Below are positions 6,001 through 9,000 of a DNA stretch of 13,323 nt, in pieces; position 1 is the first letter of the stretch; each line of letters opens with the position of its first letter. Made by a program: the position numbers. Source of the DNA: Gemmatimonadota bacterium (lineage in GTDB: Bacteria; Gemmatimonadota; Gemmatimonadetes; Gemmatimonadales; GWC2-71-9); NCBI GenBank assembly GCA_039588295.1, contig JBDHAB010000064.1:1-13323 (forward strand). Reading direction: 5' to 3'.

Positions 6001-9000
6001 TCTACTAGCCGCAACTCAGGAGCCGCACCCGAAAGAAACGCCGCCTTCAAGCGACACTCCTCGTACTCCGCCGCCGCGTCCGAATCGATCACCACACCGC
6101 TTCCCACCCCCATCTCGCCCCGTCCCTGCCTATCCACCACGATCGTGCGAATGCCGACGCTAAAGCGCGCGCGGCCATTCGGCGCAATGTACCCGATCGC
6201 GCCCGTATACACCCCGCGCGGAGACTTCTCGAGTTCAGCAATGAGTCGCATCGTGGACACCTTCGGCGCGCCCGTCACTGACGCGCACGGGAACGTTGCG
6301 CGCAGCAGATCCAGCCACGACACTCCGGGCCGCAGGCGCGCCCGCACCGTAGACGTCATCTGGTGGACCGTCTCGTAACGCTCGACCTTGAGCAGATCCT
6401 CCACCGTGACCGACCCCGTCTCCGCCACACGCCCCAGGTCGTTCCGTACCATGTCCACGATCATCACGTTTTCCGCGCGGTTCTTCTCGTCCGCGCCCAA
6501 CCACCGCGCCCGCTCCGCATCCGCCCGCCGCGACCCACCCCGCGCCGCCGTTCCCTTCATCGGCCGCATCCACACCCGCCGCCCCTCCCTTGCCAGAAAC
6601 AGCTCCGGCGACAGTGACACCATCGTCCGCTCCCCGTCGTACAGACAGGCCCCATACGACACTCGCTGCCGCTCCCGCAGCCCCAAATACAGCGCCTCCG
6701 CCTTCCCCTCCAGCCCAAACCCATACCGCATCGTGAAGTTGACCTGGTACGTGTCCCCCGCCCGAATCGCCTCGTGAATCCGCGCCACCGCAGCGCCGTA
6801 CTCCTCCTCGGACGTGTCCAGCACCAGATCCCGCACCCCCAACGGCGCCGCCTCCACACCTTCCAGCGGACCATCCACCCGTTGCGGCGCCTCGAACACC
6901 CCCATCCACGCCAGCATCGTCCCGTGCCGAACCCTCACCGCCAGGTCTGCAAGACCTGGCTCCAGCAAGAAGCCCAGCTCGTAGCTCAGGTATCCCGCCA
7001 GCCACCGCCCCGCACCCAGGTGCGCCTCTACTTCATCGAAGAACCGCCCCACGTCTTCGCCTGTCCGCAGCGCCAAACACGCCACCGGCTCCTCGAACAA
7101 CATCGTCCGCCGATCGCTCCGCCCCTTCCGCGTGCTCTCCAGCAACACATACGGCGCACGCGCACGCGTCCCCACCGCGCGCTCCCCAAGCACACGCCCT
7201 AGCTCGGCAGCGGTGCCCTCCGCCGAACCCGTCAATGTCGCTGTCGATGACATGGAACGATGACTACGTCGTCAGGCAAGTCGTTGGTGCCGGAGGCTGG
7301 ACTCGAACCAGCACGGGACTAAAACGCCCCAGCGGATTTTAAGTCCGCTGCGTCTACCATTCCGCCACTCCGGCAATATTATTTGGCCTACTCCATAACA
7401 GTATATTGAAACGCTTCCGCTTTGCCCAGGAATCGAACGGGAGTCGGGTGCCTAGTGAGTTCGACCCTCAGCTCAAGTGACTTTCGAAGCCCTCGAGGGC
7501 CAACTCATTTCTCACTTTGCTCTACGAGTTCGATTTCGTACAGGGTCCGCCAGAGTTTGCCGGTCACGAAGAGACGGCCGTTCTCGGCGTCGTAGGCGAT
7601 ACCGTTGGGGACACCACGGCGAGGAACACCCAGGCCGGCGACGCTGATGCGTCCCCTCACCCTGCCGGATGTTGGCGATATAGCGACAATGACATCCGAT
7701 TGGAAAATATTGGCGTATATCATTCCGTCGATGTACTCCAACTCGTTGAGCCAGGTCACGGGACCGTTGTTGTCAATGACGGTCACTCGTCCGACTTCGG
7801 CGAAGGTTCTCTTGTCACGAAAATAGAGTGTATCGGTGCCATCGCTCATTATGAAGCGATTCCCATCGTGCGTCAGCCCCCAGCCCAGTGTCGGATAATC
7901 GAAGCGGCCGATCTCGGTGAAGGAATCATTTTCGTAAATCACCGCTTCGTTGGATGCCCAGGTCAGCTGCACGATCGTATCACCCCAGACAGCTACCCCT
8001 TCGCCGAAGAACTGCGGTTCCGGCATGTCGCGAATCTGCAGCACCCTCCCCGTCTCGACCTCGACCCGCCGCAGCGTCGATGATCCCATGTAGAGGCCTG
8101 TCCCCTCCACAAACACGCTGTCGACGTACACCAAGCCTTGGGTGGGCGCGTCCTCGTCGTGTGGGTACTCGTTCACGATGCGGTAAGTATAGTTCGTTAT
8201 TGTCGTGGCGGGTGGCGGTGGCGAAACCGATTCGGAACACGCGCTCAACAGGGTCACTGCCGCTGCGCTCGCCAACGTGAGGGACTGCTTTATGGAGTTG
8301 GCAAGGTCCATTCTGAAACACGGGATCCCAATCATCGCGGTTGCTAGACTGCACCGTTACCTATTGTAGCAGGAATAGACCAGGAATCAAAGCACCGGTC
8401 CAGCAACGCATCGACGTCATCGAAACGCTCGTCGTTGTCTTTTCGTGCCCGATGTTCACAATCCCGCGTACACAAGGACGTTAGATTGTCGACTACGACA
8501 CAGGGGCGCCTGCTACAATGGCTCTACCCCGGCTCTTTGGATACGCGGGCTTCTAATGATGCGTGCTCGGCTTTTTGCAGCGCTGTTACTGACGGTCGTG
8601 GCCGCCACCGGCGCCAGGGCCCAGGAAGACACCACATCCACTAGGAAGAGGAGTGGATACGTGTTCATTCCCGCGATCTACTACACACCCGAGACCGAGT
8701 TGGCAGCCGGCGCAGTCGTCATGTTCTACTTCCGTCGCGAGAGCAGCCCCGACGACGCCATACCCTCCACAATTACGCCTACGCTGATCTTTACGCGGCG
8801 AGAACAGGTGATCGCTGACCTCGGAGCAAGTATCTACTTCGACGACGCCGGTTACTGGCTTACCGCGGGTGTCAGCTTTGAAAGGTACCCCGACAAGTTC
8901 TGGGGTATCGGCCCCGACACCGACGCGGAGGCCGAGGAGGACTTCACGCCAAAGACCTTCGCGGTCGGTGGAACGCTGCGGCGCGCGTTGCGAGAGGGAT

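Follow-up and report, generated by a model that had tools for sequence, protein, structure and literature searches.

The Q-rule, that is Gln right after the signal peptidase I (SPase I) site of most exported proteins with subsequent N-terminal pyroglutamate formation by a glutaminyl cyclase (QC), is treated in the available part of Szczesniak 2023 (mBio 2023, PMC10653852) as occurring 'exclusively in the Bacteroidetes phylum'. The accessible sections of Bochtler 2018 (PMC5837995) report high Q-values outside Bacteroidetes as well, with 77% for Ignavibacterium album, 55% for Chloroherpeton thalassium and up to 67% for a few cyanobacteria, and call them scattered outliers 'with no obvious pattern'. 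The initial annotation of the DNA studied here regarded the Q-rule as a hallmark of Bacteroidetes so far; this agrees with the literature searched as far as exclusiveness is concerned, but has to be qualified by those high Q-values, which include some non-Bacteroidetes members of the FCB group. According to the same sections of Bochtler 2018 (PMC5837995), Bacteroidetes possess two unrelated cyclase types split by lineage within the phylum, the catalytic residues of the plant-type papaya QC are E69, N155, K225 and Q24 (or E), and approximately 87% of Bacteroidetes plant-type QCs carry a lipobox. No paper reporting pyroglutamate or the Q-rule in Gemmatimonadota proteins was found in the literature searched.

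In our study we analysed a stretch of 13,323 nucleotides of a Gemmatimonadota bacterium (genome G000, assembly GCA_039588295.1), referred to as the window, which represents contig JBDHAB010000064.1 (C64). At 7505..8335 of its minus strand lies a gene for a plant-type (type I) QC of 276 aa. It had been described initially as a plant-type cyclase with a lipoprotein-like N-terminus, and both parts of this description were borne out. The protein matches Pfam Glu_cyclase_2 (PF05096) with an E value of 2.2e-80 and 270.1 bits, the curated cut-off being 22.3 bits, and covers profile positions 7-249 of 249, i.e. the whole domain. Its translation begins with a predicted lipoprotein signal peptide (residues 1-32; 8240..8335, minus strand) closed by the lipobox LLSA|C (the bar marks the cleavage point), with the Cys33 codon at 8237-8239; Met9, at 8311 on the same strand, is an alternative start. 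Solved glutamine cyclotransferases were aligned with it over the full length: 3NOL (5e-52), 3MBR (2e-51) and 2FAW (8e-45), which we take to be the Zymomonas, Xanthomonas and papaya enzymes, respectively, and this similarity suggests a beta-propeller with five blades. For Q66, E112, N197 and K260 of the window protein, the aligned counterparts in the 2FAW chain are Q24, E69, N155 and K225. Among the aligned Gemmatimonadota plant-type QCs E112, N197 and K260 are invariant (31/31), and in the Q66 column 27 of the 31 sequences have Q and 4 have E, while a lipobox is present in 25 of the 27 resolvable orthologues of the phylum. Judging from its sequence, the window encodes a predicted exported, lipid-anchored plant-type cyclase with all four catalytic residues kept. 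Like the plant-type QC lipoproteins of Flavobacteriia and the three solved enzymes, it spans the whole propeller domain, retains the catalytic set and, in addition, bears a lipobox; it differs from them in accompanying a type II enzyme as the second cyclase of its genome, and its identity to all relatives found is only 37-52%. NCBIfam provided no name for this protein, nor for the animal-type QC and the sprA-like fragment described below.

Both SPase I-type signal peptides of the window end directly before Gln (...AGTLA|QPEV and ...TGARA|QEDT). The first one belongs to a type I phosphodiesterase family enzyme (985..2934, plus strand, PF01663), in which the signal peptide at 985-1050 ends with TLA and is followed by the Gln+1 codon at 1051-1053; GTG 985 was chosen as the start, being the sole ATG/GTG/TTG within 25 codons before the hydrophobic core. 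The second one is carried by an Omp85-family outer-membrane protein (8556..9647, plus strand, PF01103, E 5e-12) located next to the cyclase gene, with the signal peptide at 8556-8621 ending with ARA and the Gln+1 codon at 8622-8624.

For the whole genome, cleavage sites were located by our own crude pattern rules, and the exact share of Gln is uncertain, with estimates ranging from 30% (blind predictor, all candidates) to 95% (Q-aware motif, TonB receptors); for the Q-aware motif, a compatible Q anywhere within a zone of 15 residues is counted, and the blind predictor is a (-3,-1) rule ignoring +1. Background Gln amounts to 3.2% in 3496 gene calls, the same value as given earlier. Of 446 c-zone A-x-A sites from 358 proteins, 31.6% have Gln as the next residue; the corresponding shares are 3.1% for 13132 A-x-A sites located past residue 100 and 5.1% for 981 such sites within residues 15-52 of proteins whose N-terminus is not signal-like. 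The strict A-x-A measure gave too low values where sites are mostly L/V/S-x-A (2/36 in genome G058, 3/21 in G142) and was replaced by the wider (-3,-1) motif with a control window. With +1 ignored, the share of Gln was 30% in a set of 747 sites, 41% in one of 347 and 65% among the 79 with the best scores, and Gln was the top residue of the +1-blind test (183/496 sites). The Q motif was noticed in the c-zone of 277/614 candidates versus 35/614 in a control window placed 40 residues further on, the average for other polar residues being 11%. Identical scripts applied to 200 kb of E. coli K-12 yielded Gln at 3/24 blind sites, with Ala as the top residue, and the Q motif in 7/32; these control sites agree with the mature N-termini of OmpA, FhuA, DegP, Skp and AppA. 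As a blind lower bound, 37-46% Gln at +1 was obtained genome-wide versus 12% in E. coli.

The enrichment of a hydrophobic stretch followed by [AGS]Q at N-termini, claimed initially, was reproduced in a replica of that test: 316/2556 N-termini versus 77/2556 at residues 101-152, a ratio of 4.1, with ratios of 1.0 to 2.0 for E, D, N, S, T, K and R. The further claim, of Gln behind the SPase I site in the majority of exported proteins, is borne out, next to the lower bound set by the blind test above, by sets defined by protein family, in which small-x-small|Q was found in 19/20 SPase I candidates among Plug-domain TonB receptors (blind, 14/20) and in 12/16 candidates among M28 peptidases (blind, 7/16). 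Obtained results support the view that, in this genome as well as in those sampled from its class, Gln dominates position +1 of predicted SPase I sites, and the majority of Gln that characterizes the Q-rule is present, with a share resting on crude predictors. Such a pattern might also be produced by Ala-/Gln-rich composition, wrong start codons or the pattern rules themselves. False positives (Rossmann-fold N-termini, membrane anchors) were indeed seen among the candidates, and two unsupervised models for site location, position-weight EM and segmentation EM, failed to find the sites and were discarded after collapsing onto the hydrophobic core or a fixed offset. We nevertheless find an artefact hardly credible: Gln stays at 3-6% at other positions of the same proteins, other polar residues show no enrichment, the E. 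coli control has Ala as its leading residue and agrees with the mature N-termini named above, and the signal is strongest in sets chosen by a downstream Pfam domain, not by the N-terminus.

The genome encodes another cyclase, overlooked in the initial annotation, an animal-type (type II, M28 fold) QC lipoprotein, on a different contig (G000:C42:47278-48177, minus strand), recognized by PDB sequence matches and a lipobox. Its best solved relatives over the full length are bacterial glutamine cyclotransferases, 6QRO (3e-60), 4FUU/7D1D (9e-55) and 6QQL (4e-51), whereas ordinary aminopeptidases score about 1e-8 or worse (YwaD 8e-9), and the motif columns AHWD.RP, D.EDYG, DMVG and YWHT are common to it and the solved bacterial cyclases. 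L065, a small M28 lipoprotein encoded in this genus, was also weighed as a possible cyclase and dropped, its best solved relatives being leucyl aminopeptidases. The start codon of the animal-type QC overlaps the stop codon of a sprA-like ORF (ATGA overlap), sprA being the gene of the type IX secretion pore, in the gene order sprA-QC-comEA-like-ATPase, and in two genomes that possess just the plant type, the QC gene is cleanly missing from this slot. SprA_N matched, in a whole-genome search, the upstream part of the sprA-like ORF at the contig end with 33.5 bits; for the last 500 residues of the ORF Pfam and PDB sequence searches returned no match. This genome carries, then, two unrelated predicted membrane-anchored cyclases with intact active sites. 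The resemblance to the Porphyromonas gingivalis system with its type II enzyme PgQC (PG2157) includes both the full-length similarity of the M28-fold lipoprotein (6QQL, 6QRO) and Gln after the SPase I site, here predicted, in most substrates. The differences lie in the phylum, in the coupling of the cyclase gene to sprA by the ATGA overlap, and in the pattern itself, which in Gemmatimonadota is predicted from sequences and is less marked in three families belonging to other classes.

Among 401 genomes of the phylum the animal-type QC was found in 305 and the plant-type QC in 115, which gives 265 with the animal type only, 75 with the plant type only, 40 with both and 21 with neither. The weakness admitted initially, that only one in five genomes of the phylum shows the cyclase, is removed once the animal type is included, as 380/401 carry one type or both. 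Similarly to Bacteroidetes (Bochtler 2018, PMC5837995, available sections), the two types occur largely in complementary lineages of one phylum. Both bear lipoboxes, and nearly all copies in the phylum are predicted lipoproteins.

The Q motif was present in 14/28 to 26/49 candidates of six genomes from four families (237-400 kb samples), and in Plug receptors of four animal-QC-only (17/20) and four plant-QC-only genomes (16/22). The pattern appeared in all 14 sampled same-class genomes, whichever cyclase is present; three genomes without the plant-type QC (G040, G061 and G002) were sampled by TonB-receptor N-termini only. In families f10-f12, which belong to other classes, it was weaker, with 14/33 TonB-receptor candidates in seven genomes (small samples, TonB receptors only), although a type II cyclase is present in 18/19 genomes of these families. 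As a trait of the whole phylum the pattern is a candidate only, seen throughout the sampled genomes of the class and weaker in f10-f12. The Ignavibacterium album, Chloroherpeton thalassium and cyanobacterial outliers display the same sequence pattern and fall partly in the same FCB group, but in Gemmatimonadota the pattern extends to all sampled families of one class and is accompanied by near-universal cyclase genes. In five genomes with neither cyclase, of which one has a completeness of 100% in 3 contigs and another consists of a single contig with a completeness rating of 96%, the Q motif was still found in 9/13 receptor candidates, which means that Gln at +1 is not strictly tied to a detectable cyclase. 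TonB receptors may have a general bias towards Gln; in E. coli, both BtuB and FepA begin with this residue.

These cyclase-less genomes, together with f10-f12, where a cyclase accompanies a weaker pattern, speak for Gln at +1 being selected for another cause (SPase I preference, spontaneous cyclisation), with the cyclases serving just a few substrates; non-enzymatic cyclisation is mentioned in the sections of Bochtler 2018 available (PMC5837995). We consider this improbable, since the retention of at least one of two non-homologous cyclases in nearly every genome, with the types largely replacing each other by lineage, is as expected if cyclase activity itself were under selection, and the lipoprotein nature of nearly all copies also parallels Bacteroidetes (Bochtler 2018, PMC5837995, same sections). 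From the predicted Gln start of most exported proteins and the presence of two unrelated, predicted membrane-anchored cyclases we conclude that capping with pyroglutamate, described in print as confined to Bacteroidetes, is probably at work in this soil-type bacterium as well.

The part played by the window cyclase in such capping is another matter. It is only 40% identical to the plant-type QCs of the same-genus genomes G112 and G176 and, separated from the f1 sequences, has a long branch of its own. Its best identity among 400 phylum genomes is 42-52%, and QCs of Sedimentisphaerales, Tenuifilaceae and Daejeonella resemble it to the same degree (45-47%). The Atlas clusters closest to it are commonest in Pseudomonadota, Chloroflexota and Bacteroidota, while for the type II QC the commonest taxon is Gemmatimonadota; the latter enzyme occurs in all four same-genus genomes with 72-76% identity. 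The composition of the contig is atypical and mosaic, with GC3 of 0.71 in the window QC gene (7.7th percentile of genome genes) and 0.68 in its GDSL-like neighbour (2.5th percentile) versus 0.94, the top of the genome, in the genes at 985-5349. Same-genus synteny is absent for the contig, DNA comparison with eight same-genus genomes gave almost no matches, and the Omp85-family neighbour reaches a best identity of 40% among 150 same-family genomes. The tRNA-Leu(TAA) gene (7285..7374, minus strand, ARAGORN), situated between a PabB-like gene and the plant-type QC, sits where base composition changes and is the only stretch of positions 2700-12600 with several same-genus DNA matches (74-78%), except for a 75-base motif inside the window QC gene that matches the plant-type QC of G112.

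Lacking a close relative in the phylum, having its nearest clusters commonest in other phyla and lying on a mosaic contig, the window QC may be foreign or mis-binned. Gln at +1 would then be real, but the window enzyme, on a mis-binned or chimeric contig or as a recent foreign accessory gene, would stay outside the pathway, and the C42 type II QC alone would serve the Q-rule. We hold this to be rather unlikely, though a serious competitor: both contig ends give 66-69% DNA matches in same-genus genomes, the Q pattern is seen in both SPase I substrates of the contig, the QC gene is intact and retains catalytic residues and lipobox, and two cyclases per genome are not unusual given the 40 genomes with both types. 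Most likely the window QC represents a second, accessory cyclase that was acquired horizontally or has, at the least, diverged strongly, and the conserved type II enzyme is probably the main cyclase of this lineage.

The explanation that we favour, and consider likely, is that the window QC is exported and lipid-anchored and is one of two unrelated cyclases serving a Q-rule pathway, with the window copy most likely accessory and type II as the main enzyme. In such a pathway, precursor proteins would be exported by Sec, SPase I would cleave after small-x-small and expose Gln in most substrates, and a membrane-anchored cyclase, presumably on the periplasmic side, would turn the exposed Gln into pyroglutamate. 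By analogy with work on Porphyromonas gingivalis, the blocked N-terminus might shield proteins from aminopeptidases, with which the abundance of M28 peptidase genes, 17 to 25 matches in each genome of this genus, would agree. Of the initial proposal that the Q-rule operates in Gemmatimonadota, the Gln pattern with its controls and the cyclase genes stand, and pyroglutamate formation is what we infer from them. A broader view, tentative and in our opinion somewhat more likely wrong than right, would regard the capping of Sec/SPase I substrates as ancient and shared by a broader group including at least one whole Gemmatimonadota class, with two non-homologous, interchangeable cyclases, the type II gene being translationally coupled to sprA; the Gln pattern in genomes that lost both (about 5%) would then point to a third cyclase that has so far escaped recognition or to a non-enzymatic route.

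If proteomics confirms the capping, the statement 'exclusively in the Bacteroidetes phylum', as it stands in the available part of the mBio 2023 paper (PMC10653852), needs revising. Signal-peptide predictors and N-terminal proteomics of this soil-dominant phylum should, if the reading is true, expect blocked pyroglutamate N-termini, and two unrelated cyclases swapped within one phylum would constitute a natural experiment on the reason for which envelope proteins are capped.

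Our own gene caller predicted 3496 genes in the genome under study (G000), covering 87% of the 4.5-Mb assembly, and cleavage sites of signal peptidase I (SPI) were placed by several pattern rules of our own that depended progressively less on Gln. Behind an n+h N-terminus, Gln followed A-x-A at 31.6% of 446 sites, compared with 3.1% of 13132 sites past residue 100 and 5.1% of 981 in other N-termini; its background in this genome is 3.2%. Under a (-3,-1) rule blind to +1, Gln made up 30% of the residues at +1 when 747 candidates were counted, 41% with 347 and 65% with the top 79, and where this rule missed, the listed candidates often had a compatible Gln 1-4 residues downstream. 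Restricting candidate starts to 30 codons and setting aside membrane and lipobox proteins left 614 candidates, 277 of which (45%) contained the Q motif, [AVSTGLIC]-x-[AGS]-Q, in the c-zone, versus 35 (5.7%) in a control window 40 residues downstream and a mean of 11% for eight other polar residues. The crude hydrophobic-stretch test of the initial annotation was reproduced as well (316 of 2556, with 77 of 2556 in the control), and in the same test no excess comparable to that of Gln was seen for E, D, N, S, T, K or R. When identical scripts were applied to 200 kb of E. coli K-12, Ala was the top residue and Gln occupied 3 of 24 blind sites; the sites picked for OmpA, FhuA, DegP, Skp, AppA and Ivy match their mature N-termini. 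The claim that exported proteins of this genome carry Gln after the predicted SPI site is thus borne out by the A-x-A, blind-rule and Q-motif counts against their controls.

Protein sets picked by a downstream domain are independent of the choice of signal-like N-termini. An n+h N-terminus was recognised in 23 of the 28 Plug-domain matches of G000, three of these with a lipobox; in the 20 SPI candidates the Q motif, which accepts any compatible Gln within a 15-residue zone, was present in 19 and Gln stood at the blind site in 14, while by eye small-x-small|Q was read in 19 to 20 of 21 Plug receptors. TonB receptors may be Gln-biased in general, E. coli BtuB and FepA being examples. The 22 M28 peptidase matches yielded 16 SPI candidates, with the Q motif in 12 and blind Gln in 7, and the control window gave 1/20 for Plug and 1/16 for M28.

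Samples of 237-400 kb were taken from each of six phylum genomes, including two without the plant-type glutaminyl cyclase (QC), G109 (same genus) and G142, and three without the animal type (G067, G064 and G058). The Q motif was found in 38-57% of candidates versus 7-11% in the control window, and at blind sites scoring at least 3 the top residue was Gln in all six, although in G058 Gly was equally frequent. Automatic counts were also made on the N-termini of Plug receptors of further genomes, grouped by QC type. Within the same class, 24 loci of four genomes with animal-type QC only gave the motif in 17 of 20 SPI candidates (left out: 3 loci without an n+h N-terminus, 1 with a lipobox), 27 loci of four plant-only genomes in 16 of 22 (3 and 2 left out), and 20 loci (L292-L311) of five genomes with neither QC (G143, G336, G389, G270 and G261) in 9 of 13 (5 and 2 left out). 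In families f10-f12 of other classes, 39 loci of seven genomes (G002, G005, G008, G014, G003, G006 and G012) gave 14 of 33 (4 and 2 left out), yet 18 of the 19 genomes in these families have a type II cyclase; several orthologous receptors there have G, A, E or D as the predicted first residue. These receptor and bulk-sample counts therefore place the Gln pattern across the sampled families of the class, and in the other classes it looks weaker, still being present.

Over profile positions 7-249 of 249, the 276-aa ORF at 7505-8335 (minus strand) fits Pfam Glu_cyclase_2 (PF05096; E 2.2e-80), and it aligns in full length with the solved glutamine cyclotransferases 3NOL (5e-52), 3MBR (2e-51) and 2FAW (8e-45). 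The papaya catalytic residues named in a section of Bochtler 2018 (PMC5837995), Q24, E69, N155 and K225, correspond in the 2FAW alignment to Q66, E112, N197 and K260, and the translation reads a lipobox at the N-terminus, ...LTLASAAAVTLLSA|CSES, with Cys33 as its cysteine. Profile, structure matches, catalytic residues and lipobox together argue for an intact, exported plant-type QC that is probably lipid-anchored, in agreement with the initial annotation.

As judged from its sequence, this predicted enzyme is an outlier among plant-type QCs. Its identity is 37-50% to 30 others of the phylum, 40% to those of G112 and G176 from the same genus, and at best 42-52% among 400 genomes; in the QC tree it forms the longest branch, apart from the group of family f1. 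The closest sequences in a GTDB species pattern scan (45-47%) lie in Sedimentisphaerales, Tenuifilaceae and Daejeonella, and its nearest Atlas clusters, taken as leads only, have Pseudomonadota, Chloroflexota and Bacteroidota as their commonest taxa. The contig is also mosaic in GC3: 0.94 at 985-5349, 0.81 in the PabB-like gene, 0.68-0.75 at 7505-12178 (the QC and three neighbours) and 0.89 in the last gene (12304-13311), the genome mean being 0.778 (sd 0.046). A tRNA-Leu(TAA) at 7285-7374 sits at the composition switch. Eight same-genus genomes have almost no DNA in common with the window except this tRNA and both contig ends, and no close orthologues of its PabB-like and Omp85-like genes were found. 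The contig could be an island beside the tRNA, or mis-binned or chimeric; the Q-rule reading is independent of this QC gene.

Elsewhere in the window, frame 1 is open over 1-2934 and ORF 383-988 lies in another frame. By eye the latter looks like the C-terminal end of another phosphodiesterase, a paralogue of the 985-2934 gene (...SGDHCVDPEIVPGILFSNR... vs ...TGDHCMDHTLVPGVLLVNR...); two tandem phosphodiesterase paralogues therefore probably open the window, and the frame-1 stretch at ~400-985 is likely non-coding. ORF 11168-12178 (minus strand) ends in FlgD_ig (PF13860, E 4e-12), and lacks a signal peptide at its listed start; a longer secreted protein whose C-terminal domain is of the sorting type may have been called here in truncated form.

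A second, animal-type (M28 fold) QC lipoprotein of 300 residues with the lipobox ALG|CGGS was noticed among the M28 matches of G000, outside the window, on contig C42 (47278-48177, minus strand; L211:1498-2400). It matches solved bacterial glutamine cyclotransferases in full length (6QRO 3e-60, 3GUX 2e-59, 4FUU/7D1D 9e-55, 6QQL 4e-51), the best ordinary aminopeptidase reaching only 8e-9. It is 72-76% identical in all four same-genus genomes, it has a relative in 305 of 401 phylum genomes (E <=1e-25), and its nearest Atlas clusters, again a lead only, are commonest in Gemmatimonadota. PF05096 occurs in 130 of the 401 (E <=0.001), 115 forming the strong set (E <=1e-70), which confirms its patchy distribution. 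The tally is 265 genomes with the animal type only, 75 with the plant type only, 40 with both and 21 with neither; four unpublished genomes (G057, G097, G157 and G182) are included, all of animal type, and without them a QC is present in 376 of 397. A lipobox was found in 25 of 27 plant-type QCs with a resolvable N-terminus (30 loci) and in 10 of 12 animal-type loci by pattern, the remaining two by eye. From lineage to lineage one type stands in for the other: only the plant type occurs in genus g58, only the animal type in g89 (except G143 with neither), and family f6 has the plant type in all 18 genomes possessing any cyclase. This resembles the Bacteroidia/Flavobacteriia split of QC types in Bacteroidetes described in a part of Bochtler 2018 (PMC5837995).

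At the C42 locus the QC start codon overlaps (ATGA) the TGA stop of an upstream ORF of 707 open codons that reaches the contig end and matches SprA_N (33.5 bits, cut-off 27); downstream lie a helix-hairpin-helix (ComEA-like) gene and an MshEN/T2SSE ATPase gene. The slot behind the sprA-like gene was inspected in plant-only G064 and G067 and in G143 and G336 with neither QC, the ORFs being identified by eye from translations. In G064, G067 and G143 the next ORF is already the ComEA-like one and the cyclase is absent, and in the first two an ATPase-like ORF also lies inside 1.4 kb; in G336 a non-cyclase ORF comes next, of which only the N-terminus is ComEA-like. The missing QC is therefore a true gene loss at this locus and not an assembly gap.

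Passages of Szczesniak 2023 (PMC10653852) place the Q-rule 'Exclusively in the Bacteroidetes phylum' and call it 'unique among procaryotes', and a passage of Bochtler 2018 (PMC5837995) reports a continuum of Q-values outside Bacteroidetes, up to 77% in Ignavibacterium album. Our full-text literature search found no paper linking Gemmatimonadota to the Q-rule. Direct observation covers the Gln pattern in the sequences and the genes present; from these we infer that Sec would export the precursor, that SPI, present in 398 of 401 phylum genomes, would cleave after small-x-small and expose Gln, and that a lipid-anchored cyclase would convert it to the cyclic form. By analogy with P. gingivalis, for which protection from aminopeptidases is argued in a part of Szczesniak 2023 (PMC10653852), the blocked N-terminus may withstand these enzymes. 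Peptidase_M28 matches number 17 to 25 per genome in G000, G109, G112, G149 and G176 of the same genus, most G000 copies having signal peptides, and N-terminal capping as self-protection would fit such a peptidase-rich envelope.
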